A stretch of 56,631 bases of DNA, counting the filler, from Jimgerdemannia flammicorona (Eukaryota), in assembly GCA_003990765.1 (NCBI GenBank). It is 3 parts of 3 records of this genome, joined end to end, with 100 filler letters (N's around TTAATTAATTAA, not from the genome) between each part and the next. Parts side by side here need not be neighbours in the genome. Positions count along the whole stretch, not along the records: positions 37,825 to 56,631 come from RBNJ01002109.1; 2 more parts are not named here. One strand, written 5' to 3'. Positions within the stretch are counted from its first letter, which is position 1. Each line of letters starts with the position of its first letter. The translations under genes and the position numbers were made by a program. The notes under the pieces are model-generated. The model worked only from the letters and a program-made list of their open reading frames with translations. It ran no database searches and was not told where the DNA came from. This document shows, piece by piece, positions 12,166-56,631 of the stretch.

Positions 12166-15100
12166 TGTGATAGTTGATCTAAATCAGGAATATAAATTAG
12201 AGAAATAGATATTTAATTACAGTACTTGAATCTGATTCCAAAATATAATATAGCCTTATAAATAGCAGTCATATTTTATAAACATTAAAGTTTTTACAAA
12301 TGATAAACTCTTCACAAATATTGAGATTTCACAGATGTTAAAGTTTTGACAATTGTCAAAAATTTAATAGATATCAAGAATTAATATTTATAAAAAGTAA
12401 CTTACAGGAAATATAGTCATAACTTAGTTACCTTATTTAGTAAACTTATATAAATATCTCCAGTATTTAGAATAAATAAAACCTCAGATTGAAATAGTTC
12501 TAAGTAAAGAAAAAGTAAGAGAACTAGTAAGCCTGCAGGCAGATATATAGAACTTACTCACTCTTGTATCCTAAGAACTCTGTAGAGTCAAAGAAGATCA
12601 AGTTTTTAAGATATAGAATTCTGATATACTTATACAGTTATACATCTACTATATTATAACCTGGTATCCATTGACTGGTAATTTAAGATGAATTTCTCAC
12701 TTTCAAGCTAGATAATGAATAACCACACAAATCAAACCAAAATATCTAGATAATATAGATATGAGATCACTAGTATCTATAGATATATCTTAGATAAATC
12801 AATCACTATATTCATTGATGACTTTGAGCAGTATGGACCCTAACAGCAAGATAGCAAGTAGCCCTCATTTCCTTCAGTCTCTAAGAACCAGCAAGAGCAG
12901 AATTTACAACTATAATCTATATAGAAATATTAATAATACCATACTAGCAATATAGAAGACCTGGCTCTGAACTATCTATTATATAGATAAGATCAAGCAA
13001 GCTCTAAAGAATCAGCTCAATATAATATATTAAGAAATGAGTAAGGATTCAAACATATTATATACAAGAATCTAATATTAGATAATCCTTATAGATTATA
13101 CTGCTGCTATTCTAAACTAAGTAGTAGAAGTAATCTTTATAAAAGAAGTCTATCCAGAGATAGTTCTGGTTATCTGCTTATTATCAGTAGTTCTGGATCT
13201 AGCACAAAAGATCACCTATACAAAATAATACTGGATAGCCAGACATCTATAAGACTATATAATAGAAAGAGTCACTGGAGTCAGAATTGAAATACTTAAG
13301 GCAACCAGTGTGATTTCTACCAAAGTGATCAATTGAAACACACCTCAGCCAAAAGCCATATATATATAGAATAATAGAGAAACAGTGACCCTATAGAGTA
13401 ACTTACTAAGAAGTTTGTCAAAATAACTATCCATCTTAGAGATATTGTAAAGAAAATTAGAAAAAGAGATAGCTACCCAGTTCAGAAGTTTGCTACCACC
13501 CCAAACAAGAAAAGAGATACCTGTTATACTTGTAGAGAAGAAGGCCACTACTCACATAAATATATGAGTAAGACCAAGTACAAAGCTTAGTCAAGTAATG
13601 CTATAAGAAATAATGAACAGGCCAATACTATTACCTTTGAAGAAATTAGAGAATCAGATGAAAAAGAATAGAAAGTCTACCCCACTAAGACTATCAAAAA
13701 GAATGTTTACAAGTAACTCTATAAGAGATCTCCAGAGAGACTCAAGATGAGCACTGTGGAAAAATAGATGGAAACTATTACAGAAAGCTAAGATGAAGAA
13801 ATAGAATCAAGATATAGAGCTGAAACAGGCTATTTAAGATATCATTTGAGAAACTACTCCAGCTAGTGAAGGAGAAAAGAAGAAAAAGCTCCACAAGATC
13901 AAGACTTTCAAGTATGATATCTTCAAGAACCTCAGTCAATATAAGGTCAATATAATGTTTGGCCAGTTAGCAGAAATACAAATATTTAGATAGCAAATAA
14001 GATATAGACTTGCTGAGATAACTAAGAAACAAGAATAGAAAATAACTGAGGCCAATAATATTCAAGAAGACTCTGGAGAGAAGAGCAAAAATAATTACAA
14101 GACATCTGCCTCTATACAATGTATCAAATTTAAGATAGAATCTTTGAGGCTATTATTGATACTAGAGCAGGAGAATGCCTTCTCAGCAAGAAAGCAAGAC
14201 TGCCTAGGTTGAGAGGTTGAAGAAGTAACCAAATTAGTATTCATTATAGCAGATAGTATAAGAGACATATCTCTAGGAAAGATCCAAGATATTTCCATCA
14301 AGTTTGGAGGAGCAACCATCTCAGTAGTTATAATTATAACTAATACTACTAACTATAACATTCTTATCAGCAATCAGTGGCTTTATAAAGCTAGAGCAAT
14401 AATTGACCTCAATGCCCAGAAGATGTAGATCATCTACCAAGGTCAGGAGATATGAATTCCCATCAATATCAACAAAGGAGTACTGCCTGAAATAGAGAAA
14501 GAAAGCAAGTAAGAAACCTATATAGTAACTACACAGAAAAAGAAGAAGAAAGGATAGATTAGTGAAGAAGAATAGTATAAAAAGATCATTAAAGAGTATG
14601 TATCACAAGGAGTCTGCCCTCATGGAATCAAGATATACTATATGAAATACATTGATAATTGCTACCAATATATCAGCAGAATTAAGAAAATCTACTAAGA
14701 AAGAAGACAAAAGACTCTTGAAAAATAGGCAAGACAAGAAAAGAAAGAGGAAGAGAATGATAAATCAGTAGCCCTCCTAGAGGACAGTAATAATGAAGAA
14801 GAAATCAAGGTCAAGATTTGGAAAATCCACTCTAATATAGTTCTATCAGAATATAAGTCAGAGAATATAGCTGAAATAGATATTACCACAGTAGAGAAAA
14901 CTGTACTAGAGTCCTAGACAACTACCCTGCTTGTAATGGGTCTGAAAATGACCATTCTAAAGGACCATATTAGGGTCCTCAAAACAAGAAGTAGTCTGGT
15001 TAAGAGTGAGATTACTATTGAAGGAGGAGTCATCAATTTAGACTATATTAGAGAAATACTACTCATTACTAGGAACTACAATCCTATGATTCTGTTTTCA

Positions 15101-15227
15101 ATCAAGAAGAAGGACTAATTGGTTCAAATGTTAACTTCTTAGTTCTTCAGCCAAAGATCATAGAAGTCAAGAAGTTGGAGGAGAAGAAAAGGATTCTGAT
15201 CTACTGAAAGAGAAGTATTTGCTAGCA

Positions 15228-18960: not shown

Positions 18961-18974
18961 TCTAGATAACTAGA

Positions 18975-20553: not shown

Positions 20554-23500
20554 GATATTTCTTGAGTCGGTTTCGGTGAATGGTGGTGGGGATTATTGTG
20601 CCTGAGGGTTTCCATAGCCAAAAGGTGGTCCCTTTTATATCTTGCACAAGGTAAGGTCCTTCCCACTTGGGCTCCAGTTTTCATGACCATGAAGCTTCTA
20701 CCATGTTCGGATATACTAGGACTTTGTCTCCTATCTTGATAATCTCCAAGGGCTTGTGGGTCTTTTCCGCATTCCTCCGTTATAGTATCTGTGCCTTGGT
20801 TATGTAATCCTCAGCCTTCTTCCTGATTTGGTGTAGTCTCCGTATTTCTATATCCACATGTTTCCATACAGCATCTCTATTGGATGATAGGGTTTCTTGA
20901 GAACATTCTTCTCCAAACAGCATTTCTTGAGGGGTAAAGTGGGTACTTTGTGATCGGATATCCCAGAGAGCAGATAATGCTATTGGCAGATAGTGATCCC
21001 AGTTCTCATAGTTATCACAGATCTTGGTGATAACATTCTTGAGGGTTTTGTTGGTCCTTTCTACTTGTCCGTTTCCTTGAGGGTGATAGGCTGTGGTCCG
21101 AATGTGCTGGATCTTGTATTTCTTGGAGAGAACTTCGAAGAACTGGTTCATGAATTCTGTTCCTCTATCTGTAGTTACTTATGTTAGGGTCTTGAACCGA
21201 CAGATGATTTCCTTATGGAAGAAATCGGCGATTGACTATGCATTGGCTTCCTTGAGGGGTCCTGCTTCTATCCACTTCATAAAAAGGTCTACAATGACAA
21301 TGATATATTGGTTACCAGTCAGGGTCAAGGGTAGAGGGCTGATTACATCCATTGCTATATGGGCAAATGGTACTGGTTCTATGTGTGCTGATCCTGGAGC
21401 TTGATTCCGTTAGTCTTGTTTCTGTTTCTGGTATTTGTTGTATGTTTTGATGAATTGTCTGATATCTTCCTCTATCCCTGGCCACTATATTATTCTTCTT
21501 GCCTTATTGTATGTATTCGTTCCTCCTAGATGGCCAAGTTCATGTACTGATTTCATCGCTTGCTCCTTCTTGTGTTCTGGTATGACTAGTAGTTTTCCTT
21601 TCTTCAGTGTTTCTCCATTGGTTTTGAATTGTTTCCATGTCCTGTTGATAATTGTTTGTGTCCATTCTTCCAGATGTTGGGGCATCTTTCGCTGTCCTAG
21701 GTATGTGATAATTCCATAGTAGAGCTCCTTATTCATGATTGATCTGTTGGTTGGAGGTAGTTCAAGGTGTCCATGAGAGAGTATCTGCATTGGAATTTGT
21801 TCTTCTAGGGCGGTATACAATGGTTATATCATAGGCTTGTAACTTCATTATCCATTTGGCATAGATTCCTTTGGGTTGTCCAGTTGTCAGTAGCCAGGTG
21901 AGAGCTGAGTGGTCCATCTGGATGGTGAAGTGTCTTCCAGCCAAGTAGTAGTGGAACTTTTCTATGGCCCAGATGACTGTGAGGCATTCCAACTTGTAGG
22001 ACTCGTATTCTTTTTCAGCTCCTCGGGTTCTGCAGCTAAGATATGCAATAACATACTCCTTTTTGTCTTCTTTTTGAGCTAGGACTGCTCCTAGTCCCTG
22101 TGCACTTGCATCCATCTGAAGGATAAATTCTTGGGTCCAATTGGGTCGTCTGAGGATAGGTGCCTGGGTCAGTCTGACCTTGAGTTCATCAAATGCTTTC
22201 TGTTGTCTGCTAGTCCACTGGAACTTGGTATCCTTCTTATTGAGTTCGTAGATTGGACCTGCGATGTTGGAGAATCCTCTAATGAATCTGCAATAGTAGG
22301 AGGCAAGTCCCATGAAGGCTTGGGCTTCTGTAACAGTGGTGGGTCTTGGGTATGCTGCCACTGCTTGTATCTTGAGGGGGTCTGTGTGTGTTCCGTCTCG
22401 ATTGATAATATGGCCAAGATAGGAGATCTCGATTTCTGCAAACTTGCACTTCTTGGGTTTGATATAGAGGCCATGTTGTCTTAGTCTCTCCATTATCTAC
22501 TGTATGTGCTGCAGATGTTCCTCAGGTGTCTTGCAGTAGGTGATTACGTTGTCAACATAGACCATCATCCATCTTCCCATGTCATAGTGGAAGATTTTGT
22601 TCATTATATGCTGGAAGCTTGCTGGTGCATTGCACATTCCGAATGGCATTTGTAGGTAGATGTAGGTTCCGTCTGGGGTGATGAAGGCTGACTTTTCACT
22701 TGCCATTTCTGTGAGTCTGATTTGGTAAAATTCTGAATATAAGTCCAAGGTGCTATAGTACTGTGCTTCATCTCCCAGTATTATAAAGATGTCACTGATG
22801 AGTGGCAGTGGTTGGCAATCCTTCTTGATAACTGCATTGAGCTTTCTGTAGTCGACACAGAGCCTTGGGGCAAATTCTCCAGGTTTGCTTCCTTTTTTCG
22901 GAGCTAGTACAACTGGTGAAGACCAGGAGCTACTGGCTTCTTTGATGATGCCAGCTTCTTCTATCTGCTTGATTTCTTCTCTGAGCCATTCTCGGTAGGC
23001 TGGTGGGACAGGTCTTGCTTTCTGGTAAATTGGTTCAGTGTCTCCAGTATCTATCTCGTGATAGTAGTATGGGGTCTTTCCCTTGATATCCTTGAAATCT
23101 GTGGCAAAGACATCCTCGAATTCGTGGAGTATTTTCTTGAGTTCCTCCTTGAGTGGGAATTCATCTCCAATTGTGTAACTGTGCTTGCTCATGTTTTCCT
23201 CCTTCTTATGCTCGAGTTCAGTGATCTTGGTGCTGGCGAATACTCCTCTTCCTGTGGATCTGAATCCTTTCTTTCCTCTTTTCATTTCCTCCAGATTCTT
23301 GACTTCTATGATCCTTGGCTGTATGATCGGGAAGATCAACATCTGTGCCAATCGGTCCTTCTTCTTGACTGGGAATGGAATTGTAGGATTGTGGTTCCTA
23401 GCAATGAGTAGAATTTCTCCAGTATAGTCTGAATCGATGACTCCTCCTTCAATTGTGATTTTGCTTCTAGCCAGGCTGCTTCTTGTCTTGAGAATCCCGA

Positions 23501-25720
23501 CATGATCCTTTAGGATGGTCATCTCTAGTCTGGTTGTGAGTAGGGTGGTTGTCTGGGGTTCGAGTACAGTTTCTTCTACTGTAGCAATGTCCATTCCAGC
23601 TGTATTTTCTGACTTGTATTCTGGTAAGACTGCATCAGGGTGGATCTTTTGAATCTTGACCTTGATTTCTTCTTTGTCATCACTGTCCTTCAGGAGAGCT
23701 GGTGGTTCATCATCTTCCTCCTTCTCTTCTTCCCTGATCTGTTCTTCGAGAGCTTTCTGCCTTCTTTCTGGTGGATCTTCCTGATTCCGATGGTGCACTG
23801 GTAGCAATCGTTGACATGCTCCATACAGTACATCTTGATTCCATGAGGGCAGACTCCTTGTGGTGCATAGCCTTCTGCCATCTTCTTGCACCATTCTTCT
23901 TCACTCATCCATCCAACTTTCTTCTTCTTTGGAGTAGTCACCATATAAGCTTCCTCTTGCTTGCTCTCTTCTTCCTCCATATTGGGCAGGACTCCTTTGT
24001 TGACATTGATGGGAATTTGTATCTTCTGTCCCCGGTAGGTGATTTGCATCTTCTGGGCATTGAGATCGATTACTGCCTTGGCTTTGTGAAGCCATTGATT
24101 GCCGATGAGGATGTCATAGTTGGTGGTATTGGTTATGATTACATCTACTGGGATTGTTGCTCCTCCAATCTTGATGGAAACATCTCGGATCTTTTTCAGA
24201 GGTGTGGCTCTTGTGCCATTGGCTGTGACGAATACTAGCTTAGTTGCTTCTTCCACATCCCAACCTAGGCGGTCTGCTGCTTTCTTGCTGAGGAGACATC
24301 CTCCTGCTCCTGTATCAATGATGGCTTCAAAGATTCTATCTTTGATTTAGCATGTTGCATAAGCAGAGGTTTTGTGATTGTCCTCACTTTCTTCTCCTGA
24401 GTCCTCTTGAACATTGTTGGCCTCAGTTATCTTCCAGCCTTGCTCCTTGGTGGTTTCTGCAAGTCCAAATCTCATTTGCTGTCTGAAAGTAGGTATTTCT
24501 GTGAGCTGACCAAAGATTGCATAGACCTTTTGTTGACTGAGATCCTTGAAGATATCATACTTGAAGGTCTTGGTCTTGCGAAGCTTCTTTTCTTTTTCTC
24601 CTTCACTGGCTGGAGTGGTTCCTCAGATGATATCTTGAACTGCTTGCTCAAGCTCTATGTCTTGATCCATTTCTTCGGCTTGGCTTTCTGTGGCTATTTC
24701 CATCTGTCTTTCCACTGGGTTCTTCTTGGGTCTTTCTGGTGGTCACTTGTAAGGTTCTTTGTGAACATCCTTCTTGGTGGTCTGAGCAGGATAGGCCTCC
24801 CATTCCTCTTCATCGGAATCTCCAATTTCCTCAAAGGTAATTGTATTGGCCTGCTCCTTGTTTCGTGTAGCATTGCTTGGTTGAGCCTTGTGCTTGGTTT
24901 CGCTCATGCATTCGTAGGAGTAGTGGCCTTCTTCTCCACAGCTGTAGCAGGTACCTTTCTTCTTGTCTGAGGTGGCAGCAAACTTCTGAACAGGGTGGCG
25001 ATCTCTTCCTCAGATTTCCTTTACCACATCTCCCAGATGGGCAGTCATTTCAGCAAACCTTTTGGCGAGTTCCTCCATAGGGTCACTGTTCTTTTGCTGC
25101 TCTGTAGCTTTTGGCTGAGGTGTGTTTTGATTGATCATTGTGATAGGGATCACACTGGTTGCCTTGGGTGCCTCAATTCTGACTCCTGTAACTCTCTCCA
25201 TTGTATGGTCTTGTGGGTGTCTGGCTATCCACAATCGCTGAGCATAGGTGACCTTCTGTGGCAGATCCAGAATCACTGGTGATGAGCAGATGGCTATGGC
25301 TATTTCTGGATGGACTCCTTTCATGAAGGTTGCTTCGGCTACTTGATCTTGGATAGCAGCAGCATAATCTGCAAGGATTATCTGATATCAAATTCTGGTA
25401 TAGAATGTGTTTGGATCCTCACTCATTCCTTGGTACATTGTGTTGAGCTGATCCTTCAGGGCTTGCTTGATCTCATCTGTATAATATGTGTTTCGGAGCC
25501 AGGTCTTCTGTACCATCAGTATGGCATCGGCATCATTTCCTGCATGGGTTGCACCTGTGAATGCTGCTCTGGCAGAACCTCGTAGGCTGAAGGGCATGAG
25601 GGCTACTTGCTGTACTGCTGTCAGGGTCCTTACAGTGGCATACTGCTCAAAATCATCAATGAAGGTGATGATTGATTCATCTGAGGTATATCCATGAAAT
25701 ACTGGTGGTCTCATATCCAT
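20543..25720 (-). pseudogene. gag-pol of family A (gag, CCHC knuckle, aspartic protease, Cys/His module, dUTPase, RT, RNase H, integrase with GPY/F)
   Basis: MDMRPPVFHG start; CYSCGEEGHYSYEC; IIDTGAGG; MPFGMCNAPASFQ; YVDN (mutated YxDD); QMDASAQGLGAVL; TAYHPQGNGQVERTN; KWEGPY. Contains premature stops and frameshifts. Confidence 0.93.
23250..23665 (-). other. dut: dUTPase domain between protease and RT (family A)
   Basis: All five trimeric dUTPase motifs: AGMD, RSSLA, GVIDSDYTGEI, DRLAQ, RGKKGFRSTG. Confidence 0.95.
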
Positions 25721-25834
25721 CTTGTCTAGGTATTGGGGCTCAGTTTGTATGGTTGTTCGGGTAGTGTCAGTTGTTTGTTGTTCAGCTTGAAAGTGAGGGA
25801 TTCGTCTTGAATCACCAGCTAATGGGCACCAAGT

Positions 25835-26310
25835 TGTAATGTAGCAGATGCTTACTCTTGAAAGTATGTCAGATTTCTGTATCTTGAAAACTTGACTGTT
25901 CTGACTCATGCAGAGTCTCTTGAAGTTGCAGGGGAGGGTGGGTGAGTTTGAAGTGTATCTGCCCACAGGCTTACTAGTTCCTTTGCTATCTCTTTGCTTT
26001 GAACTATTTCAATCTGAGGTTTATTCACTCGAAGATACTGGATTATTTATACAAGTTTGCTAGCTATGAGAGGGTGGCTAAGTAATAAATGAGTCATTTG
26101 GACTTTGTCGAAACATTTGGACAATGTCTAAATGCTATACTAAATCAGGACATTCCATTTGGATAATGTCTAAAATTTAGACAATGTCTAAGAATTTAGA
26201 CAATGTCGAAATCGGCGACTGCTAACTATAAGGCTATACTACTTTGGGAATAGGTGCAATCAAATGTCTATTCCCTATTTCCTTCTTCCAAATTTAGCTA
26301 TACTATCACA
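25835..26310 (-). repeat. 5' LTR of family A element
   Basis: TG..CA ends, 476 bp, followed on the minus strand by ACT + TGGTGCCCATTAGCTGG. Confidence 0.95.
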
Positions 26311-37300: not shown

Positions 37301-37724
37301 CTATACCCTATGTCAGATTGAAGATTGTATCTTTGATGCCATCATTGATACTAGTGCTGGAGGATGCCTCATGAGCAAGAAGACAATTGACTGCCTAGGA
37401 TAGGACATTGAAGAGTCCACCAAAATGGTCTATGTTATAGCAGATGATACACGAGCTACCCCCCTTGGCAAAATCTGAGAAGTCCCCATCAAGATAGGAG
37501 GAGCTACCATCTCAGTAGATATGATTGTTACAAGTACCACCAACTATGACATCCTCATTGGCAACTAATGCCTTCACAAGGCCAAGGCCATCATTGATCT
37601 CAATGCCCAGAAGATATAGATCAACTACAGAGGAAGAAAGGTACAAGTCTCTATCAATGTCCACAAAGGAGTCCTACCAGACATGGAGGAAGGAGATGAA
37701 GAAGACACAGAGGTCTTCATGCAC
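34307..37724 (+). mobile_element. Ty3/Gypsy family B copy 1: ~1.49-kb 5' LTR (34307-35798), PBS, gag, protease; truncated by gap
   Basis: Homology to copy 2 starts exactly at T(G>A)TAAT and the LTR ends ..catgaca followed by acttggtaccc. gag is homologous to family A; IIDTSAGG protease motif. Confidence 0.88.
34548..35357 (+). pseudogene. ~270-codon accessory ORF inside family B LTR, homolog of the family A 139-aa ORF
   Basis: One frame with two stops (TAG 34791, TAA 34824). The first stop is Gln in copy 2. Motif AKKIHQIFR..IPNLEYVRVSDFRDLSFHH; acidic C-terminus. Confidence 0.72.
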
Positions 37725-37824
37725 NNNNNNNNNNNNNNNNNNNNNNNNNNNNNNNNNNNNNNNNNNNNTTAATTAATTAANNNNNNNNNNNNNNNNNNNN
37801 NNNNNNNNNNNNNNNNNNNNNNNN
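37725..37824. other. Assembly gap with artificial TTAATTAATTAA spacer
   Basis: 44 N + TTAATTAATTAA + 44 N. Confidence 0.97.
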
Positions 37825-40800
37825 TCAATATAGACAAAGAGCTATTTTCCAATCTTATTGCTGAAGACTCTATTCATCATTTGCTGAAAACTTGTTAGGA
37901 TATTGTATATTCCAAATAGTATTCACAGATAGATATAGATAGTATCAGGTGTGATAAAGGCTGATTTCACACTGACATCTTGAGTGAGACCAATCTGATG
38001 GAAGTCTGAGAACAGATCCAAGGTAGTGTAGTATTTGGCTTCACTTCCAAGAGTGGTAAGGATTTCTTGAATATTTGGCAAGGGCTGCCTATCCTTCTTG
38101 GTGATTGCATTGAGCTTTCTGTAGTCAATATAGAGTTTTGGGGCAAACTCTCCAGGCTTGCTTTCTTTCTTTGGGGCAAGGACAATAGATAAAGCCCAGT
38201 GACTGATAGCTTGCTTGATAATTCTGGCTTCTTCCATTTCCTTGAGTTCTGCTTGCAGCCATTCTCTATAGGCAGGTGGTATAGGTCTGACTTTCTGATA
38301 AATGGACTTGGTATCACTAGTGTCAACTTTATAATAGTACTTAGGTTCTTGATTGTGGATATCTCTGAAGTCTGTAGCAAGTACTTCTTTATTCTGGTGC
38401 AGAATCTTGAGAAGTTGTTCTTCCAGGGGAAAGTTTTCTCCAATAGTATATGTGTGCTTATTCTGGTCTCTGTCTTTCTTGTACTCAAGTTCAGTAATCT
38501 TGGTGGCAGCATAGGCTCCTCTTCTAGTAAATCCAAAGCCTTGTTCTCCTCTCTTGGTCTTGATGAGTTTGATGGCTTCAGTGATCTTAGGCTTCTTGAT
38601 TTTGTGGATCAGCATCTGGCTAATCCTGTCATGCTTCTTGACTTCAAATGGGGTAGTGGGGTTGTAATTCCTAACTATGAGAAAGATCTCACCAGTGTAA
38701 TCAGGGTCAATTACTCCTCCTTTAACTGAGATTTCACTTTTGGCCAGACTACTCCTGGTCTTGATAATTCTAGCATAGTTCTCTAGTAGCTTGACTTCAA
38801 TTCTAGTACCAAGTAGAGTAGTAGTCTGTGGTTTGAGGATAGTATCTTGAATACTAGTAAGATCTATTCCTATGGCTCCTTCAGTCTTGTATTCTAGGAT
38901 CTTAGCTTTGGGGTGAAACTTCTTAACCTTGAGAGTAATGTCTAGTTCTTGTTCCTCCTCATTATCACTATCAGCTTGCAGCTCTAGGGGCTAGTCATCT
39001 TCTTCAGCTTTTCTTTTTGCTTCAGTGGCTTCTTGCTCATGCTTCTGTTGGCAGATTTTCCTAACTTCACTGATACAGAACCAGTAGTCATTTAGGTGTT
39101 CAGAGTAGTACATCCTAGTATCATAGGGACATCTTCCTTGAGGGGCATAGCCATTAATGATCTTATTATACCACTGCTCATCTGTGAGCTTGGGTGTCTT
39201 GTTCTTATTCTTATTCACTGAGTATATGAAGACTTCTGTGTTCTCTTCATTTCCTTTCTCCATGTCTGGTAGAACTCCTTTGTGGACATCGATAGAGACT
39301 TGTACCTTTCTTCCTCTATAGTTGATCTGTATCTTCTGGGCATTGAGGTCAATGATGGCCTTGGCCTTGTGAAGCCATTGGTTGCCAATGAGGATATAAT
39401 AGTTGGTGGTGCTTATAACAATTACATCTACTAGGATGGTAGCTCCTCCTATCTTAATGGAGACTTCTTGGATTTTGCCAAGGGGGGTAGCTCATGTACC
39501 ATCTGCTGTGATACAGATCATCTTGGTGGACTCTTCAATGTTCTAGCCTAAGTGGTCAATTGTCTTCTTGCTTATGAGACATCCTCCAGCACCAGTATCA
39601 ATAATGGCATCAAAGATACAATCTTTGATCTGATATGGAGTATAGGCTGATGTTTTGTGCTGGTCTTCAGATTCTTCATCTGAGTATTCTTGATCATCTT
39701 CTTATGCATTGTGAGCTTCTACAATCTTATACTCTTGATTCTTGGCAGTAGTTGCAAGTCCTACTCTTAACTGCTGTCTGAAGGCAGAGACTTCAGCTAA
39801 CTGTCCAAAAGTAGCATTGACCTTCTGTTCCTTGAGGTTCTTATAGATATCATACTGGTGAATCTTGGTCTTGCACAGCTTCTGTTCCTTCTTACTTTTG
39901 CTTTCTTCTGAGACTAGAGTAGTGTCTTCAATGATTTGGCAGGTAGCTTTATCTAACTCCATATCTTAATCAATCTCCTTGGATTGGGTCTTGCTTTGAA
40001 TAGTGACAGCTGAGATCTTCTTTGATCTTCCAACTGGCTTGCTGTTGCTCTTCTTATCATAGGACTTGAACTGGGTTCTGGTACCTTCAGTAGTAGAGTA
40101 GAATTCAAGCTCTTTATAGTATTCTTCATCATCAGTGTCACCAATCTCCTTGATAACTACTGCATTGGTTTGTTCTCTGGTTCTGATAGCATTACTTAGT
40201 TGGGCTTTGTGTCTTGTTTCAGTCATGCAACTCTTTGCATAGTAGCCTTCTTCTCCATATCTGAAGCATATGATATTGTATTCTTCTATAGCAGCTGCAA
40301 ATCTCTGCACTAGTCTTCTATTGGCACTTCAGACTTCTCTAATGACATCATTAAGATATGCAGTCATCTTGGTAAACTGCTTGACAAGTTCCTCCACTGG
40401 GTCAGCTTTGGCTACCTTAGGAGTAGGTAGAGATGGTTGTCTGTTTACAACTATGGTGGGTATGATACTAGTTGACTTTGATGGCTCTATCTTGATGTCA
40501 GTTATTTTCTCTATTGAGTGTTTGGTAGGGTGTCTGGCAGTTCAATATCTCTGTGCAAAGACCACTTTCTGATCAAGGGTCAGTACAGCTAGGGTAGACC
40601 AGATTGCTAGGGCAATTTCAGAGTAAACTCCTTTGAGGAAGATTGAATCTGCTATTTGTTCCTTGAGGTAGTCATCATAGCCAGCCAAGACAATCTGGTG
40701 GCAGATTCAGATATAGAATGAGTTGAGATATTCACTGAGTCTCTGGCAGATAGTATTGAGTTGATCCTTGAGAGCTTACTTGATCTCTTCAGTATAGTAT

Positions 40801-42999: not shown

Positions 43000-43790
43000 A
43001 TATATATATTGATAATTACTTGCTCTCTCTCTTCAATAAATTGCTTTTTTCAGCCTTGATCTTTATGATATTAAAGCTTTAATCATAGATCTAAAACTGA
43101 TCAGACATCTAAATTGTAATTAGAATAATGAAACTTCTTATTTTAATTTATAGAAAGTAATACTTGACTCACTAGTACTTATAAAAAATACAGAAACATC
43201 TGTTTTTGAGTAATATTTTTTAAGCTTCTTCAGAGCTATATTAATGGTTTTCTTTTGCCTCAAGAGAGATATATGATTATTCTCTAATAAGTTTAATAGG
43301 TCCTCAAGTTGATCAATCAAGAGATTATATATCAGAATTATAGAATATATTATTGGAAAATTTTACCAAACAACTTCTTTTATATATTTATTAAAATACT
43401 AAAGTAAAATAAAAAGTAAAAGTATAAAAAGAATGAGCAAAATAATACTAAATCAATAAAAATACTGATAAGTACTCCTCTACTCACTTACAAAACTTTA
43501 ATAACTTCTCTTAATTTCTCTTACTCACTCTCCTCAATTACTATATCTTGTATTTCTCTGTCTACAACAGCAGTAGAATCTAGTATCTGAATTATATTTG
43601 AATAAGTTAATATTAGTTAATAAGTCTGATACTATTCTCTAATATTATTATTAATAATCTATTATAGTAAGTATTAGTACATATTCAATTATTGTAAATA
43701 TCAAGTTCCAATATATACTAATATCCAAAATAAGTTCTTTTAGAGTAAGATTGATTGCTTTTATAATAACTCTTATTTCTATACCTCTCT
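43000..43790 (-). mobile_element. hAT-type transposase relic with introns
   Basis: Eroded hAT motifs: LDISIYWNLI (LDxxTRWNST), YNLLIDQLE, ALKKLKKYYSKT, and after an apparent intron VLDL*LK (VLDPRxK). Confidence 0.65.
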
Positions 43791-44443
43791 TATCTCTTGG
43801 ATAATTAGAGAAACTAAGAACTTAGTATATAATATATACTAAGAAACTTTTAGTATGAGAAAGTATTTGCTTGAAAGTAGTTATAGCAGCAGTATTCTTC
43901 TTATCAACTATGGTTATAAGGAACTTGTTCTTTGCTATATACAGACTGCATTTGCTTTAGAATTTAGATTCAATAGGTTTACTTAAGTCTTTGGGATTTA
44001 TATACCAGTCTCAGTTCTGGTAGAAGTTAGCTAGGCTTTTGGAGTTTAGTTAGAAATATTAGAGTCACTTAGATATTATTACTAAGACTCAGGGGAATAG
44101 ATGTATAGAAGAGACTTAATTTTTATATCAAGAACTAAACTAAAACTATCTTTATTTTAGATAGAAACTAGGAGATATTTATATAAGTTGGTCTACAATT
44201 TCTGACTAAGTATAAGTAACTAATTTGGTAACTATGGTGAGATTTGTGATCAAGATCTCTATTTCTAGATAATGATCAGTACTAGTTGCTATGATACCAA
44301 TTGCTAGAGATAAACTGGATATTATTTATTTACATTATTTATATCATTTGCTACATTCATCATTCATATATCATATATCATATATCATGCTCAATTATGA
44401 CATTATTACTAGATCACATAATTACTCATTATTATATATTATG

Positions 44444-44543
<100 letters not shown>

Positions 44544-46149
44544 GGATTATATGTCATGTCTCATTTATCTATCTTGTTCATTCTATTACATTCTTTCTCT
44601 CTTAAAAATCAATATTCTTATTGATTTGGAAATTGAGAACTAGGGAAGAAAAAGGTGGAGAATTCTTCTCAATATTATTGCTATTTCTACCAATAGTTGG
44701 AGAAGTAGTTGCTAATAGCTTAATATTAAGAATGGAGAAGTCAATGAGGTCTGCAAATAGTTCTTGAACTGATATAAGCAGTAGAGTAGAAGTTCTTCAT
44801 CTAATATAGTTGGGGCCATCTAAGTAGAGTTCTTAATTCTTATACTAAAGATATCTATTTAGATAGACAGTTCTTTAAAGAGATTAAAGAGGCCTTAGAG
44901 TCATTGATCTAGGTTGTCATTCAAGAGAAGGCTCCAGTAGGGTTTGTAGTTAGTAGATTTGAGAGTAATCCAGAAGTTAACTTCTTGGATAACCTTGATT
45001 TCCAGTTCATCAATCTTAGGAAAGAGAGGTTCTAGAAGTTCTTCAGTTATATATAATTGAGATTGGAAATTGCAAAAGGTATATGGTATATGATTTGATA
45101 GATCTTCTTGACTAGTCTTTAATTATACCTGTTCAGATTAGTCTAGTCTGAGACCTGATCAATAGATAGGCCATTTGTATATTGAAGAAGTTGATGGCCA
45201 ATTTCATATTCATATTAGATTTCTAGATAGTTGGTAGCAAAGTAGGCTCTTTCTATGACTTTGTAGTAGTTGAGAACATAATGTCCTAGATTCTGACTAG
45301 TGAGATTAAGAGCCTCAGAGTAGTGGTTTTTTTCTTAGATAGTAATCTGGATGTCCAAAGAGACAGTCAACCTGACTTGGGAGGGGCTGACTATAGCAGA
45401 CTATTTGGTGGCAAGTAGCAGGCATTCTTATCTTGTCTTTTTTTAGAAGAAAGAGAGGGGAATGAGAGTTGTAGTATATTCTTACTCTGGATATTTATAC
45501 TTATTCATCTGTTTGATATGACTTCATTTTGATCACATTTCTAGAGAAATGTATGATCTATTACTATAAGCAGAACATGTGCTAGTTATATGAGAAAAGT
45601 TCTGATTTTGAAGATATCATCACATTGTAGTTATAGTTATATAGGATTGATAGATCTTAGTCTTCTTTTTTTTTTATCTTATTGGTGTATTTGCAAGGAC
45701 TGGCCATTCTTATCTAGAGTGAAAGCTCTCATTGTTACAGCTGGGGGTTCAAATCTCTTGGAAATAGTATTTCTTATAATCTGAGACAATTTCTAATAAT
45801 AATATCTGTCATGTAGACAGACTGAGATTGGTTTCAATATTGTCAGCTTTTTTAAGTTTTATATGAAGTATCTGTCATCCTTTAGTAGAGATGATACAGA
45901 TAGTATGAAACAGAGTTATTTAAATACATTTTGCTATATCTTACTAATTTATTCTTTACTTGAGTATTCTCTTATTGATTAATTATAGTATTCCTTTTTC
46001 TATAATATTCAGTATTATATATCTCATATAAATATATGGTATCTTCTTCCTTTACTATATACTCTAGGTTTTAGAGCTATAGTTCTTTTCTCTGTTATGA
46101 GATGAGTATTTCCATATAGTCCTGGAGGGCTTCACATATATTCTCTAGT

Positions 46150-49100
46150 ATTTCTTCTTTTTTCCAGATAGTGTTATAGGTGGGGTAACTCTTTCACTTG
46201 ATAAAAAAAAACTGCTTAACTGTTTTGGTATGTTTGTGGATCTTATAGTCAAGTACTTTCTTGATTTTGAATTCCTTATAGTCATTAATCCTAATCAAAA
46301 GTAATAGTAGAACTATATACTTGGGGAATAAGTTCTCATAGTAGTCCACCAGTTGGCTAAGATAGAATACTGGATATACTTAGATATTGTGAGAGAGTTG
46401 CAGCTTATAGTTGACTTTACTGATCTTTTTCACAATCTTATATAGTCCAATTCTTCTAGTATAGAGTTTCTTGAATAGTTGCTATATTAGAGTGTCTAAA
46501 TGGAGATAGTCTGTTTTAAGTATAACTATGTCACTAATATTGTAGGAGGCTTCTCTTCACTTTAAGTTTGCATACTTAGTCTGGTAGTTCTGTACTTCTA
46601 TGAGAGTATCTCTTGTCATTTGGATAAGATTAGAAATAGTCTCAGCTAGATCTTGAGCTACTGGGACTGCTGATTTTGTAGTAGTGCTCAAGGTCTTTAA
46701 GTACTGACCATGGTTCAGGAAGAATAGAGTCTTCTTCATAGAGATTTGCTGACTATTGTTGTAGACAAACTTGGCATAGGCTAGGTACTTATTCTAATCA
46801 TTTTGCTTATACATATCATAGAGTTTCTGTATGATTTTGAACTATAGAGCATTATTGTTAGATATGTATAACTACTCTATCATCTCTATAGATAAGTCTA
46901 TTATAGTAAGTAAATCTTTTGGATATTTGTCTTATGGATTCTGAGATCTCAGCCTCTGGGTCTTAGCAAAATTGAAGGAATTTCACCAGAAGACTATCCT
47001 GTTAGTAGCTATCCTTAATCATCTAAGTAAGATCTCCAATTACCTCAACTATAAAGATAGGTTCATCTTCCATATATCTGGAGAAACCATCAGCCACATA
47101 GTTGGTTTTGCTGGGGATATACTTGATTTCCATATTAAAGTTAGTAATAATTTCCATCCAATGAGCTTATCTATAGATTAGTATGGGCTATATATAAATA
47201 TACTACAGAGTATAGTGATCAGTATAGATTATAAATAGTTATCCTAAGAGAAAGTAGCACTATTCCTAGAGTATAGTGACAATGGTCAGAAGTTCCTTCT
47301 TATGAGTAGTATACAGAGTCTCAGCTGACTTGAGCTTTTGGGAAAGGTAGGCTACTGGGCAATCTTCTTAGCTGAGTACCACCTCAATAGCAATATCAGA
47401 GATATCTGTGGTCAGAGTGAATAACCTGGTAGAGTCAGGTGTAATTAGCACTGGGGCCTCAGTAAGGAGTCTCTCAAGGTAGTTCATAGTCTAAGTACAC
47501 TCAGAGGTCCATTCAGTCTTAATATTCACTCCTTTGTAGACCAGACTGATCAGTAGAGCTATAATAGTAAAGTATCCTTGAATAAACCTTCAGTAGTAAT
47601 CTACAATATCTAAGAAGCACTGGAATAGCTTGAGGGTAGTGGAGATAGGAATATTCTTAAGGGCTGATATCTTTTAGAGATCCATATTAATACCTTCAGT
47701 AGAGATAATATACTCTGGATACTTGATCTGATCTTAGTAGAACTTAACTTACTCATCTTAGCATAGAGCTGGTATTCTTACAGAAGGGTCAGTATCTGCC
47801 TTAGGTGGGTTTAATATAGTTCTACTGTTTTACTATAGATTAGTATATTATCAATATATATAAGAATACAAATATTAAGCAGTGGTCTAAAGATGTCATT
47901 CGTCAGATACTGGAATATTGCTAGTATATTGGTCAAACCAAAAGGCATGACTCAGAACTGATAGTGTCTAAACTGCATTTAGAAAGCTGTCTTCTCAATG
48001 TTCTCATCAATAAGAATTTGATAGTAACCATTTTACAAGTTCAGTAGGGAAAAGGTCTTAGTCTTAAAGATCTGATACAATAACTTATTAATCCTAGATA
48101 AAATATACTAGTTCTTGATGGTGATCTTATTGAGAGCTCTATAGTTAATATATATTTACAAAGAGCTATTCTTCTTCTTAACAAATAAAATAGAGGCTCT
48201 AAATGGAGAGTGGCTGGATTCAATATATTCTTGGACCAATAGTTTAATCAACTCATCCTTAAGGATCTTGAGTTTAGTTTAGGCCAGCTAGTAGATACTC
48301 TTGTATGGAGGTTTAGATTCTGGAATGAGATCAATTCTATGTTGGATTTGGTACTTGGGTGGAAGTTCTTTGGGTTCCTGGAATATATCTTAGAATTTCT
48401 CAAATAATTCTTAAGCTTCTGATGAGATTGGACTACTCAGAGCTTCAGTAACCTCTTGTATAATATAAATGAAGTAGGTATTTCCTTTTTTATAAGAGAG
48501 TCTCTTTATTTGAATAGCAGAGATGATTTCAATTTCTTGATGATTGGTACCTTCTTGGGATATTAGGGTGATCTTTCTGCTTTTATGAATCAGATTAACC
48601 TTATTGATCCTCCAGTTGAAATCTGGGTTGTACTTGATCAATCAAGTCTTTCTTAGAATAATATTTTGTCCTAGAAGATCTATAATACTGAAGTCCAACT
48701 TCTCTTGATATTTGCCAATTCTGAGCAATAGGTCTTTATAGATCTTGATCAAGAGTGCAGTCTTACTATTACTAAAGATAATACTCCTTTTCTCAATAAC
48801 TGGTCTGCTTTAGACTCCAATCCTCCTGATAGTCTTGATGCTAATATAGTTTCCAGTAGCACTATTGTCTAGTAGAACATTGATATTTTGTCTATGAACT
48901 TGGTCTGAGAACTTAATACAACTGTTCTCTTTTTTGATAATATTGAGCTCTTTATCCTCATTATCTCAATTGCTATCAGTCTCCTTGAAGTCAGTCTCTC
49001 CTCATCTTTTACAAGAAGAGTAGTTCTATTTAGATTTCTCAGTCTATTGGGCTTAGTGTTTCTCAAATTGAATTTTGAAAACTTTAGAGAGGTATATATG

Positions 49101-50190
49101 ATATTTACTAATATATTCTATATAGTATATTCAGATAGAATGAGGACATCATCTATATAGTATATAACTATTTGCAATTTCCTTATACCAGTTTTTATCA
49201 TCTTCCTTCATAGTGATAACCTTTTGACTATGAGATTTATTGGTTAATCTAAACTCTTTCTTGCCATGATCTATTTAAGAGAGTTTGGAGACTTCTTTAA
49301 TAGTGAGATCTTGATAAATTTCTTCAATAATTGCTTGGGCAATTCTTTGGCCTGCTTTGACTTCAAATGAGTTGTCTCTAAAATTTCACAAGATAATATA
49401 GATTTCACCAGTAAATCCTTAGTCAACTACTCCTTCTTCTAGTCTAATGTTGAATTCTTTAGCCAGACTGCTTCACTTAGCAAGACAGATATATATTTCT
49501 TTAGAGACTTGTATTGTAATCTCAGTTCATACTATAGTATTAGTACTTAGTAAAATGGTGAGATCTTAGCTACTATAGAGTTTATATCTAGCATCAGTAG
49601 GATGAGCCTTAGTGAAGATGATAGCCTTATATCATATTTTCTATACTTTGATAATATTCTTAGGGTTCTTCTTTTCTAGACCTTTTCCAATAATAGTGAT
49701 ATTCTAATTACTAGATTTATCTGATCTATTTTTCTTTTCAGAATATCTGACAGAGATGTATCTTACCTTTCTATAAATGAAGTACAATTCTTTTTTATAA
49801 AGCTACTTCTTTTTATCCTCAGTGGAGAATCTGGGTCCTCTGGGGTTTTATTGGTTCCTTTGATCATTTCTCTGATCATTTCTTTAATCATTCTTTCTGG
49901 TGAGATTCCTCTTACATATCTTGGTTATCTTTCTTATATTCTGGATTTTATAAGACCTATGCAGTAAGGATTTCATGAGCTCTTCTTTGTACTTGAACAA
50001 AGCACTATGAGTAATAGAGATATCCTAGAGAAAGGTCTTATTCCTTAATCTTCTGGGTGAGTCAGTCTAATAGGGCTGCAAAGAGATAGTTGGCTCTGGT
50101 ACTATTGATGGCCAAATTGTTTTCCTAGTAGGTAAGTCTAACAGTCTTGAGATAGGCATCCATCCTAGTAACAAAGGTTTCTAAATAGTC
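46150..50190 (-). mobile_element. Heavily eroded chromovirus-type Ty3/Gypsy: gag knuckle, dUTPase, Cys/His module, PR, RT, RH, IN, chromodomain
   Basis: INVLLDNSATGNYI (PR), [18 protein letters not shown] (RT), TTDISDIAI (RH), VYPVFYLSQL, and FFIK*KSYPTYNTIW (chromodomain-like). 5' end missing; 3' end not resolved (may extend to ~43800). Confidence 0.78.
49242..49650 (-). pseudogene. dut: dUTPase relic upstream of protease in chromovirus
   Basis: AHPTDARYKL, K*SSLAK, GVVD*GFTGEI, GQRIAQ, HGKKEFRLT: the five motifs, each recoverable mainly by reversing C>T/G>A changes. Confidence 0.8.
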
Positions 50191-50194
50191 AATC

Positions 50195-50498
50195 TATAAA
50201 TTTAAGACTAAGCCACCCTGTCTTGATCTTAAATTTACAGCCAACTGGTTAAGTGGTATTTATGGACCTTTTATTTAATTTGAAAATTTTGAAAATCAAA
50301 ACAGCCAAATAAGGTTTAGTCACTTGGCCAACTAGCCAATCCATAAATTTAAGGCTGAGCCACCCTGGCCAGCCATTGGCCATATGATCTCTCTATATAT
50401 TATAACCTGAAAATTAAGTCCAGCCACCTGGTCAGCCAGTGGCTGACCATGGCTCTAGCCAGCCAGCCAGAGTGGCTTAGCCACAGCTGGGATCCCTA
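50195..50498 (-). mobile_element. Probable DNA-transposon (hAT-like) terminus with subterminal repeats
   Basis: Minus-strand end TAGGGATCCCAGCTGTGG. Many agcca/tggct motifs and a duplicated ataaatttaag(a/g)ct(a/g)agccaccctg. CpG depletion ends abruptly here. The matching TIR was not found. Confidence 0.55.
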
Positions 50499-50512
50499 AT
50501 CCTGCTTACTAG

Positions 50513-52365
50513 CATGTTCGCGGTCCCTATCGGCTCAGAACTGCCCATCAAGGTGGAGCAACCGATTTCTCTGCCACACAACGCGACAAGTTCGAAGGGA
50601 AGCGAGCGGGAAAAATCTTGTACGAGTTCGTGGTCCCTAAGATGGTGCTATCTGGACAAATTCATATTCCAGTGGTGACGAGGCTAGTACCTTTGGACTT
50701 TGAGGGTTGGGTTAAGATGATTACGATGGAGGTGGAGGAGGTCACGAAATATAGGTAGGTATGTGGATTATAGGTTTGGGGGTACTAGGGTTCCAGTTAT
50801 GAGAGCATTGCCATTCTTCGGGAGGCCGGATTACTTACCTGGGAGCACGTGCGCGCACTCTCCGATCCATTGGTGATATCTATAGAACGGGATCCCGAAT
50901 CCTTCTGGAATCAGCAGCTCAATGTCCCTCTCCAACTTTCAAACGTCACGTCGCCTTTCCCCGATAGCCGATCGCCCACCATAAGCATTAGCCACCGCAT
51001 CCACATACACCTCGTCTTCTTCATCGAGAAGGAGAAACAGCTTGCGATCAAGGTGCCCATCACAATACTTCCCACCTCCTGTCCCCCCTGGCCGTCCACC
51101 TTCTATCCTCCAGCCCCTTGTCTGGCTGTCCTCTGTCCCCCAATCTCCAGTTCCGCAAGCATGCACAGGGAGCCTCTATCACAGAAATAGCCTCATGGCA
51201 TCGATCGCGCCTTCTAATACCGTCAGCTCCGTTGGATCTTCCTCGTCGCTGGAAGAGAAAAAGCCGGAGCAAGTATCAGACGATCCATCGGTGGGGGGTT
51301 GTGAACTCTCTGCCATGGTATTGGTACGACAATCAGGAAGGACGCACTTTACCGTCGGAACAGAAACCAGAAGCGCCAGACCCGGAACAGAAACCAGACG
51401 CCAGACGCGCCAGACCCGGAACAAAAACCTCACGCCTATGATGACAGCCGGTCCTCAGCCCACCTCCAACTTATTTCCTCACGACCACTCCCATGAACAC
51501 CAACGCGTCCTATCATCCGTGCCCGCACTGTCCCATACGTCCTATAAAAGAAGCTCGACCGTCCAAAGCAGCTCGACCGTCCAATACAGCTCGACCGATC
51601 AAATCAGTGCAACAATCATACCAAATCCCCTTCATACGCCCTTACCCAATCCCACAGGAATTGCCCCCGAGACCCTACTATTCGTCCACACCATCCTCCC
51701 AAGGTGCCATCCACCTGCAACCCATTACCCCGTATATGACTCCGCCGCCTTCTCGTCATGGCAGTATTATGGGAGACTCCGACCACCTGTCATTACCCCG
51801 CGGCCTGTCCGCTCCGCCCTCTCGTCAGAATATTACCGGATCGACTCTCAGCTCCGTCTCAGCCAGGTCCGGACCGGCGATCTACCCGCCGTACCAGAAC
51901 ATGATGACTCCAACCGGCTTCGATCTAGCCGCGAACGCCTACCCGTCCCCGCAGCTCCGAAACTCGTACCCTTTTCCTGATGCGCCGCCGGCGGACGCAG
52001 GAGCTCGATTCAGGGGTGTACCCGCACCCACCATCGTCGGCGTCAATAACCCGCACGACGGTGTCATCATGTTGCAGCCGATAGATGAACAACCTCAGCC
52101 CTGGCCTCCCACGTCGACATCGCGACCGTTGCTGATACCACCGAGACCCCTGCCACCGACACCGCAGACCATGCTGATGCCACCAAGACCCCTGCCACCG
52201 ACACCGTAGACCATGCCGTATCAGGAACCACCGCAGGCACAGGGAGAGCAAGTAATGGGATATCCGGAGCAGCAAGGCCAACCGATGACGGGGCACTTGG
52301 GCCAGCCTCAGGTGCAACCGCAGCCGAAGGGGAAAAGGACCGTAATACCCACCCCTTGGTCGTGA
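50513..52365 (+). pseudogene. Alpha-arrestin-like gene remnant (arrestin C domain plus Pro/Ser-rich tail)
   Basis: Exon 50513-50754 encodes GKILYEFVVPKMV..IPVVTRLVPL..VKMITMEVEEVTKY; then ISISHRIHIHLVF..LAIKVPITILP. Frame changes near 51070 and ~51700, and TAG at 52207 where the repeat twin has CAG. Confidence 0.65.
52131..52214 (+). repeat. 42-bp tandem duplication (LxPPRPLPPTPQTM x2)
   Basis: gctgataccaccgagacccctgccaccgacaccgcagaccat followed by gctgatgccaccaagacccctgccaccgacaccgtagaccat. Confidence 0.9.
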
Positions 52366-54748
52366 GATCGGAAGGGTTGAAAAGACTTTTTTTCTATGTA
52401 CTTGTATTTCTCTTTTTTTTTTTTTTTTGGTCGGAAAGCGGGCTGATCGAAGTTGACAGGTTTGTGAGCCGTGGGTTGCGTGTATAATACTTAGAGACAA
52501 CAAGGGGTTCAAAAGTTTGGACGAGTACCCTTCTTATCTTTTTATTTCTTTGGACTTGAGTTCCCATCAATACTCATGTAATTACCATATCATCATCATT
52601 TCATTTCTTACAATTTCAGACTTCGACATGAAAATGTACAGTGGGCATATTCTGTTGTAAGTGATTAGCGCGCAAGTATAGCTAGGTGTCAAATATGAAT
52701 CCAAACCCATAAGTCAGGAACACATTGCAATTCACTGATGGGAAAAAACAGAGAACATGCATGGTTATTCCGTGGAAATTCATCGAAAATGGGATGGTGA
52801 ATCTCGTGCATATCAGTGGTCCTAGTCGTGAAGTTATATATATATGATCGTTCGGGTTTTCATGGTAGTAGGCATGTTCCGGCTTGCCATTCAAGCCACC
52901 TCTTCCGACCCCCTCTTTTTCGGCATTTTTGCTTTTCGTTTTGTCGTTTTATTGTATTCGTTCCCGGCGGAGAAGGGGGCATACGTTTCCGTAAATATAA
53001 AGCAAGCACGCGAGATCCGAATACTGGGCAAAAATTGGAAGTGAAATTCCACCCCCTGGAATTTCTGTTTTCGAGAAATATCGTGGGACACATCAAGACA
53101 ACGAAGCCACTAAATCAAGGAGGCGTTAGGTTTCCATTCTGGCTTTACGCCCCTCCCCCCAAGCACGCCCCCTATGATCCCTCGTGCAACCTTACGATTT
53201 TATCGGTGACCTCAGGGTGATCTAAAGGGGTTGTAAATGTGTAAATACGAGTTCACACACATGGCGTAACCGCAATTGGTTTACGGAGAATGCGATCTAT
53301 GATCGATCGGTGGTAGCGCACGGATGGTGCATGGGTAGGTATTACGATTTAATGTCCACTATGCATTCTTTCAATAAAGCTCCTTATCGACTTATCCCTC
53401 TGCCACCGCAAGACCAAGAGTGTTCATATCATCTGTTATAGCACGTGACGAGCCTTTGCCTTGAAAGTGCTGACTGTGAGAAAATTTACCGGATCCACAT
53501 GCCCAATGCATCCATGCCCAGATGGGTCGAATGCACGATGACGAGAACTTCTTCGACAAAACCATGTCTCCATTACCCATCACGATGAGCATTTTACCAA
53601 CACAACTGTATCAAGTTAGGAGCGTGATTCTGACAACCACAAAAGGTCAAACCGCTACGGTTATTCTCCACTCACACCTCTCCGGGGCGTTACAATAGTA
53701 TGCATTCTTGAGCATTTGCCCTTTGGGCTGGCCAACCTGGGCCGACTCAATCTCAGATTCCGGGGCTTTTTGGTTCCGGAAGTACTTTTCATACCAACTC
53801 AAACAAGAACAAACCTCGCACGCCACCGGGCAACAACCAGATCAAGTTTTGTCGGTCGGCCTTACAATTCACCTTTCACATGCGCCTGTGTAACTCTTAA
53901 CCTCGCCAACGTGCGTGTGGGTTAAATCTGGCACGCGGATAAAGGCAACTGGACGGGTGGGTCGTAGGTTCAATAAGGTGTTATCGGGGCTGAGATAGTC
54001 GAACCTTAGCCGAACGGACAACTGGGAGGTGGTCAAACCATATGACGTTCCAATGAACGGCAGTCGTTGGACCCTTTTCATTGTTCGACGTTTTCAGTGT
54101 ATGATGTCCATTTAGGGTAATAAGTTTATGTATCAAGAACACATTTTTCTGTGTATACGAACATCGTATGGATGTTGGGTAGCTACGCCCTAAATCTATG
54201 AACAACACGGACCCGAAAGCACAGACACCAAGCATTGAACATCAAATTATTGCCGGAAAGAGGTGATGGGTGGCCCCGGAGCCTCAGAAAATAAATGCAA
54301 ATCCAATGGATTGTGCTGCCCCGTCCTGCCCGCGTCCATAAGCGGAATAGGTCAGAGGTATTTCATCTCTGATCTTCGACGCCGATGCGCTGGCCTTTGT
54401 TCCTAAGGTTATGCGTGCCATGTGGGCCACGAGTAGCCCAACAGGGAGGTGCGGGACTCGTTGGTGCAACGCGGGGGTGGGGATAGAGCACAGGCCTCCA
54501 AAATGGGTCAATCGAACGTGCCAGGCAAGACGGACAGTTTTCCTCGGGCGCGGGTTTGGGGGGGGGGGGAAAGGGGGTAGGTGGACGGGAATGGATCTGT
54601 CCGAAAAAGAAAGCAAAAGGAAGATCCTAGGCGGGATTTGACGATCGGGAAATTACCACAAAGAGGTTGCCAATTTTCCTTTAAAACCGCGGGCTTCCGA
54701 AGACCTCCCCGGCCCAGGTTTCCTCACAACTTTAGATTCACAACAACA

Positions 54749-56596: not shown

Positions 56597-56631
56597 TGTC
56601 AAAATTTTGTCTTTTTTTTTTTTTTTTTTTA

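Follow-up and report, generated by a model that had tools for sequence, protein, structure and literature searches.

The DNA analysed here, referred to as the window, is a stretch of 56,631 nucleotides (filler included) of the fungus Jimgerdemannia flammicorona (assembly GCA_003990765.1), in which three parts from three records are joined end to end and positions 37,825 to 56,631 come from RBNJ01002109.1. [quoted passage not shown] The GC content across 44-50 kb is 0.30-0.36 and the region holds no long open reading frames (ORFs). The relic was read as a minus-strand translation with X at stops and searched with Pfam and with local hidden Markov models (HMMs) for dUTPase, protease and module, which were built from sequences gathered in this analysis. 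Together with alignments to database proteins, among them P0125 (485 aa), an undecayed member of the relic's family, this placed the following parts:

49918..50184, minus strand: remaining gag segment (blastx/tblastn to P0125 residues 107-195, 73% identity)
49743..49784, minus strand: gag CCHC zinc knuckle (aligned to the C-x2-C-x4-H-x4-C knuckle of P0125)
49245..49625, minus strand: trimeric-type dUTPase with 6 in-frame stops (PF00692, E 3.4e-20; local HMM, E 3e-33)
49068..49193, minus strand: Cys/His module of 42 residues (local module HMM, E 2e-6; tblastn to A, B and F)
48600..48902, minus strand: aspartic protease (local protease HMM, E 4e-8; aligned with the P0129 protease)
47742..48470, minus strand: reverse transcriptase, RT (Pfam RVT_1, E 1.9e-15; RT-RNase H HMM)
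47077..47727, minus strand: RNase H, in a frame other than that of the RT (Pfam RT_RNaseH_2, E 6.1e-21; blastx)
46341..46532, minus strand: integrase C-terminal SH3-like domain (Pfam SH3_Tf2-1, E 5e-9)
46086..46289, minus strand: probable chromodomain, sub-threshold (Pfam Chromo, E 6.7e-4)

The knuckle, dUTPase, module and protease follow each other in this order and share one minus-strand frame (codon starts 50300-3k), in which Pfam also found the dUTPase, RVT_1 and the Tf2-type integrase SH3 domain, the RNase H lying in a second frame. Protease, RVT_1, RT_RNaseH_2 and SH3_Tf2-1 are met in the Pol order of Ty3/Gypsy elements, and the module is separated by 17 residues from the dUTPase in front of it and by 55 from the protease that follows. 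Parts, coordinates and order are thus as claimed in an earlier note on this DNA, with Pfam, local HMMs and tblastn in agreement. The dUTPase match to PF00692 reaches 72.6 bits against a cut-off of 22 and extends over 49625..49251, the local HMM match over 49625..49245. Trimeric dUTPases have five named conserved motifs; by eye, P0125 keeps A-G-Y-D-L, R-S-S, G-x-V-D...G-E-I, R-I-A-Q and G-F-G-S-T, and the relic shows substitutions or stops in four of these five stretches.

Decay has gone far in the whole segment (GC 0.33): all four knuckle ligands are now Tyr in the alignment with intact P0125, the active-site motif of the protease reads D-N-S-A, and 21 in-frame stops lie between knuckle and protease, with 11 in the in-frame span 49077-49799. 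Because these stops interrupt the frame, lists of ORFs miss the domain order of the relic, which explains, as the earlier note had proposed, the silence of the ORF track. On the 5' side, the blastx/tblastn comparison found no counterpart in the relic DNA for residues 1-106 of P0125, the start of gag, and the relic is called truncated because this part of about 106 residues is missing. A direct-repeat pair that could represent flanking LTRs was sought around 44.6-50.3 kb and not found, and Pfam placed no integrase core (rve) at E<=0.1 between RNase H and the SH3-like domain. The chromodomain match lies where it is expected, C-terminal to the integrase, and covers positions 1-52 of the 53 in the profile, but scores 20 bits, under the cut-off of 25.1. 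The relic is therefore probably a chromodomain-bearing Gypsy element, and the label “chromovirus” used in the earlier note rests on a sub-threshold match.

An unbroken run of about 100 T (A on the relic strand) occupies 44446-44541, just past the 3' side, and two Pro/Ser/Thr-rich ORFs of 331 and 254 aa lie on the plus strand at 50985-52209 within a block of GC 0.57 that adjoins the truncated 5' end.

The intact form of the relic is represented by its database relatives. Comparison with P0125 by blastx gave 64-73% identity over 50184..49059. An alignment of 285 residues has 186 identities and 99 differences, and C>T/G>A changes alone could account for 91 of the latter (22% in shuffled pairings). 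P0125 is a single ORF of gag, a canonical C-x2-C-x4-H-x4-C knuckle, dUTPase (PF00692, E 4.6e-33, 114.2 bits) and module, and every Cys and His of the module, the residues that the earlier note wanted checked in a consensus, is present. Three further proteins (P0124, P0126 and P0129) are 37-45% identical to P0125 and likewise have the dUTPase in front of the module, and in P0129 a protease follows (Pfam RVP_2, E 3.5e-11). The undecayed element had one gag-pol ORF with CCHC knuckle, trimeric-type dUTPase, a module of about 45 residues, protease, RT, RNase H and integrase. A search for full-length relatives of P0125 returned four matches, all to the dUTPase only and none with the module, and found no intact RT of the relic family.

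In elements A and B and in fragment F the order is protease, module, dUTPase and RT, opposite to the relic and in line with the order given for A and B in the earlier note:

24044..24352, minus strand: element A, protease (Pfam aspartic protease families; local HMM)
23771..23899, minus strand: element A, intact Cys/His module used as search query (local HMM, codon view)
23253..23633, minus strand: element A, dUTPase, in a frame other than that of protease and module (PF00692, E 4.4e-25; local HMM)
39327..39629, minus strand: element B, protease (local HMM; Pfam RVP_2)
39054..39179, minus strand: element B, module with Tyr at several ligand positions (local HMM, codon view)
38526..38900, minus strand: element B, dUTPase (PF00692, E 4.3e-25; local HMM)
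14183..14425, plus strand: fragment F, protease (local HMM)
14567..14695, plus strand: fragment F, module (tblastn, local HMM, codon view)
14840..15202, plus strand: fragment F, dUTPase (local HMM)

The dUTPases of A and B score 88.4 bits with PF00692. Searching the window by tblastn with the relic translation recovered the module in B (39197..38928, E 5e-9), in F (14576..14692, E 3e-5) and in A (23923..23810, E 5e-4), each time upstream of the element's own dUTPase, which agrees with the placement by HMM. At the protein level, the identity between the relic and A/B is 32-41% (tblastn).

Element A is bounded by LTRs at 19578-19877 and 25834-26133 that are 97% identical. Within 22497-24346 on the minus strand, its protease and module occupy one frame and dUTPase-RT another, the two ORFs overlapping at 23690-23900. 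In B, F and the close database relative P0122, module and dUTPase are read in a single frame, for which reason the frame change in A looks like a mutation and not like programmed frameshifting. The integrase region of A also has stops, and an extra ORF of 152 aa without a Pfam match follows the integrase (20134-20592, minus strand). The C-terminal 42 residues of this ORF resemble an ORF at 34827-35357 (plus strand) in an A/B-like plus-strand copy (33% identity, pairwise E 4e-5).

The intact module of element A reads W-C-x12-C-P-H-x5-C-x2-H-x3-C-x2-C, and the core of the module is G-Y-x-P-x-G-x-C-P-H-G-I-x-M-Y-C-x-E-H-x3-C-x2-C. Invariant ligands in all intact copies are C-x-[H/C] and C-x2-C, with one more Cys and one more His usually present. 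In the relic, each of the seven positions that are Cys or His in the module of A is filled by Cys, His or Tyr (codons TAT/TAC); Tyr is the outcome expected of TGY>TAY and CAY>TAY transitions. A phmmer search with the module of A (58 aa) against 1.84 billion representative proteins retrieved P0125 at E 1e-9, and BLASTP of the module against P0125 gave 28 of 55 identical residues at E 4e-18. Judged by sequence similarity, the module of the relic is homologous to that of A, B and F, and the two lineages share the same module, as the earlier note had supposed. The phmmer search gave 13 matches at E<=1e-3 in total, eight of which carry the module; the other five are repetitive or low-complexity proteins aligned in several short stretches and were rejected as module carriers.

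Among the database proteins, P0124, P0125, P0126 and P0129 have the order of the relic, and P0122, P0130 and the polyprotein P0003 have the module before the dUTPase, the latter in the full succession protease, module, dUTPase and RT. Their divergence marks both orders as old, diverged families in public data. That the relic could instead be a nested fragment of an A/B element, the alternative which the earlier note had named, is contradicted by the identity of only 32-41%, the continuous frame and the four database proteins with the order of the relic.

Further Cys-rich segments were noticed in other database proteins. By eye, P0002 (about residues 690-710) and P0136 (about 665-685) contain a divergent module, C-x2-C-x-I-R-V-Y-C-x-E-x2-C-x-C, which is separated from the dUTPase by an insertion of about 190 residues with further Cys motifs, and a short acidic motif, C-T-C-[DE]-x-C, stands after the module at the C-terminus of P0128 and before the dUTPase in P0009. 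In the polyproteins P0135 and P0137, which are of Copia type (RVT_2, Pol_BBD, rve before RT), the dUTPase is flanked by the beta-barrel domain and the integrase; not only Gypsy elements have captured a dUTPase.

What kind of domain the module could be was approached through families and folds. At E<=0.1, no Pfam family spans the module of A or of B, and no above-cut-off match links it to the CCHC zinc knuckle (PF00098) or to another curated zinc-finger family. Within E<=10, the sole zinc-finger match of P0123, an 82-residue fragment, was zf_RING_Vps8_fungal with 18.7 bits against a cut-off of 27.4. When longer proteins were sought by word matching with the module region, the four candidates obtained all lacked significance. 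A sequence profile search of the PDB matched dUTPase columns only and nothing in the module, and the best module score in the ESM Atlas was 0.87, under the lead level of 0.9. The AlphaFold 2 model of P0123, computed from an alignment of eight rows, has a mean predicted local distance difference test score of 74.8 and shows a short helix followed by a loop, which holds C-x-H and the Cys/His after it, and by a long helix beginning at C-x2-C. With this model, Foldseek found nothing in the PDB at E<=0.001, and the best Z of 4.2 in VIA-align is in the range of noise. The pattern of conserved Cys and His suggests a putative small zinc-binding domain.

Concerning the neighbours of the module, nine database proteins carry it (the eight phmmer matches and P0003), and in seven of them a dUTPase adjoins it; the other two are fragments of 82 and 157 aa, which are too short to tell. 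A scan of metagenome contigs yielded 556 confirmed matches, of which the best 80 loci were fetched. The RT/RNase H lies immediately before the dUTPase in 21 of these 80 (L001-L016, L019, L032, L061, L064, L078), a third arrangement, which differs from the relic and from A/B in the position of the dUTPase and has no module. In 14 loci the dUTPase precedes the RT, nine times with a protease in front, and one locus shows a protease in front of the dUTPase but no RT within view; in the remaining 44, no RT lies nearby. Non-primate lentiviruses likewise have RT/RNase H before dUTPase. The third arrangement indicates that the dUTPase can change its place within Pol as a block. In the material sampled, the module depends on having a dUTPase as its neighbour, and the dUTPase can do without the module.

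Differing dUTPase positions in one fungal genome are not new, since they have been published for the Gypsy families of Postia placenta, whose dUTPase occupies, depending on the family, either end of Pol (N- or C-terminus) or the interval from protease to RT (Novikova et al. 2010, PMC2864245). In these terms, the relic belongs to the “N-terminus of Pol” type and A/B to the type with the enzyme “between protease and RT”. The same survey lists dUTPases in PosPlaTy3-3, -4 and -5 of P. placenta, in elements of Phanerochaete chrysosporium and in Tmt1 of Tuber, suggests independent acquisitions by fungal elements, and calls the role and origin of the enzyme in these elements unclear (PMC2864245). The PosPlaTy3/Tmt1-type elements resemble those of the window as fungal Gypsy LTR retrotransposons with a dUTPase inside Pol; compared by description, the passages of the survey that were consulted mention no Cys/His module beside the dUTPase, and the figure legend has CCHC and HHCC fingers only (PMC2864245). 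The position between protease and RT has been reported for fungal and rotifer elements (Arkhipova and Yushenova 2019, PMC6431247), and Juno of bdelloid rotifers (protease, dUTPase, zinc knuckle, RT) likewise combines a dUTPase with an added zinc motif at this place (Rodriguez et al. 2017, PMC5408684). Going by the description of Juno, this motif is a zinc knuckle that follows the dUTPase, whereas the module of A/B precedes it (PMC5408684). We found no description of the module in the literature searched, which did not extend to the supplements of PMC2864245 with their possible domain maps; the new part is likely the module and its flipped pairing with the dUTPase.

Betaretroviruses, which make a nucleocapsid-dUTPase fusion (PMC3621094), offer the parallel in position that the earlier note had drawn, and it stands: in their pro region, as in the relic, the order is knuckle, dUTPase and protease, with the dUTPase physically joined to a zinc-binding element that binds nucleic acid (PMC3621094). 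Unlike in betaretroviruses, gag, dUTPase and module form one ORF without frameshift in P0125, and the relic runs from knuckle to protease in one frame. The extra, non-CCHC module between dUTPase and protease of the relic is a further difference, as are the fungal host, an element without env, and the result that Pfam found no G-patch in the relic.

Taken as a whole, the explanation that we favour, with confidence a little better than even, is that of a decayed Gypsy relic with flipped order whose module, homologous to that of A, B and F, is a small zinc-binding domain working with the dUTPase. The module would then be a putative zinc-binding domain that serves the enzyme and not a linker. Its likeliest role could be that of an anchor which, inside the particle, holds the dUTPase on nucleic acid or on the nucleocapsid-RT complex, so that the tethered enzyme would remove dUTP at the site of cDNA synthesis, a role also ascribed to the betaretrovirus nucleocapsid-dUTPase fusion. 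Either order would work because linkers of about 17-50 residues join dUTPase and module. No single simple move converts one order to the other, and this might be taken as a mild argument for selection keeping both domains adjacent. How a dUTPase reaches the site of cDNA synthesis, and why retroelements carry one, is still discussed. In a stronger version, which we regard as rather doubtful, the module is a dedicated partner of the dUTPase, a new zinc finger anchoring the enzyme to the reverse-transcription complex, and both together form a mobile cassette that Gypsy lineages have reshuffled or handed on to one another. If this were true, the cassette would represent a fungal counterpart of the betaretrovirus fusion and could hint at a general rule by which the dUTPases of retroelements have to be tethered to nucleic acid. 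The module further offers a testable domain (zinc, nucleic-acid binding) and a marker for tracing cassette movement, and for annotation the relic illustrates that heavily decayed repeats still keep a readable domain architecture.

Several observations weigh against a module that works with the dUTPase. The co-occurrence rests on nine proteins of few lineages, and the genomes behind some of them may be closely related; the module was present in none of the 80 fetched metagenome loci; P0009, P0030, P0135, P0137 and P0138 have a dUTPase without the module according to the local HMM; and neither Pfam, PDB sequences, the ESM Atlas, Foldseek nor VIA-align gave a family or fold match pointing to nucleic-acid binding. 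Moreover, the module always adjoins the protease too, so that adjacency alone cannot name its partner. It could thus belong to the protease, as a flanking zinc domain aiding folding, dimerization, regulation or the presentation of cleavage sites, next to which a dUTPase was inserted independently on either side of a protease-module unit. Module and protease are within about 50-55 residues of each other in all four window copies, in P0129 and in P0003, two insertions beside a fixed unit would be one move each where order conversion takes more than one, and independent acquisitions of dUTPase by fungal Gypsy elements have been suggested in print (PMC2864245). Nevertheless, we consider this origin unlikely: the module precedes the protease in one type and follows it in the other, which leaves no fixed unit, the module-based search of 1.84 billion proteins found no carrier with enough flank that is devoid of a dUTPase, and a single dUTPase clade for the module-bearing lineages was not rejected (p 0.135, see below). 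An artefact, in which the relic arose by nested insertion or from a rearranged A/B fragment, or in which AT-rich DNA gave a Tyr-rich translation that mimics the module by chance, is hardly credible. The region is indeed heavily decayed (GC 0.33, 21 stops) and Tyr is frequent in translations of this kind, but one continuous frame spans all four parts, undecayed P0125 and three diverged proteins share the order, protein identity to A/B is low, and the module of A finds P0125 at E 1e-9; together with the 91 of 99 transition-type differences, this contradicts it.

As a further possibility, the two-part cassette could have been exchanged between unrelated Gypsy lineages by recombination of co-packaged RNAs, or captured repeatedly, to which we would give clearly less than even credence, though more than to the stronger version or to the protease-linked origin. 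Between the relic-type and A-type families, the module is the best-conserved piece (51% identity, 28/55), followed by the dUTPase (36%, 56/156), with 24% (21/89) for the protease and 27-36% for the RT as measured on the decayed relic; as domain rates differ, however, such ranks prove nothing. The best RT-RNase H tree unites A, B, P0002 and P0003 in one clade (SH-aLRT, an approximate likelihood ratio test, 99) and leaves the relic outside, but the relic row has a very long branch and skewed composition, and the approximately unbiased (AU) test did not reject its RT as sister to the A clade (p 0.35). The module tree pairs A-type P0003 with relic-type P0124 (66% identity, support 87/85) and otherwise resembles the dUTPase tree in being almost without supported inner branches: 0 of 10 are strongly supported for the module, and 2 of 15, or 7 of 31 with wider sampling, for the dUTPase. 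An exclusive clade of the 11 dUTPase rows with an HMM-detectable module was rejected in the AU test (p 0.0007) because the A-type rows enclose P0002 and P0136, two proteins that both RT and dUTPase place in the A clade. When these two were added, one dUTPase clade was not rejected (p 0.135), this group having been named after inspection of the tree. Since the trees lack support and the AU tests reject neither of these groupings, vertical descent with rearrangement is compatible with the data as well, and the two orders may go back to a single origin with later rearrangement, to transfer between lineages, or to two captures of a dUTPase beside an existing module. From the two arrangements, the earlier note had concluded both a functional link and exchange or repeated capture; the former is backed indirectly by the dUTPase adjoining the module in seven of nine proteins, and on the latter, neither the trees nor the AU tests are decisive.

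Apart from the Gypsy elements, the window contains nine copies of a direct repeat of about 178 nt at 8038-9569 (plus strand), which translate frame by frame to leucine-rich-repeat-like units, probably with one exon per repeat, and have no Pfam match at E<=1e-3. ORFs with protein-kinase domains flank these repeats at 6071-7014 and 9912-11325 (plus strand), with a Pkinase match of E 4.6e-19 at 10405-11322. Abutting fragment F, a block of about 4 kb at 15000-19000 is strongly skewed to C over G (GC skew -0.41 to -0.56) and its translations are rich in proline, and a repeat with a period of 8 nt at its end (18805-18943) recurs at 37716-37846.

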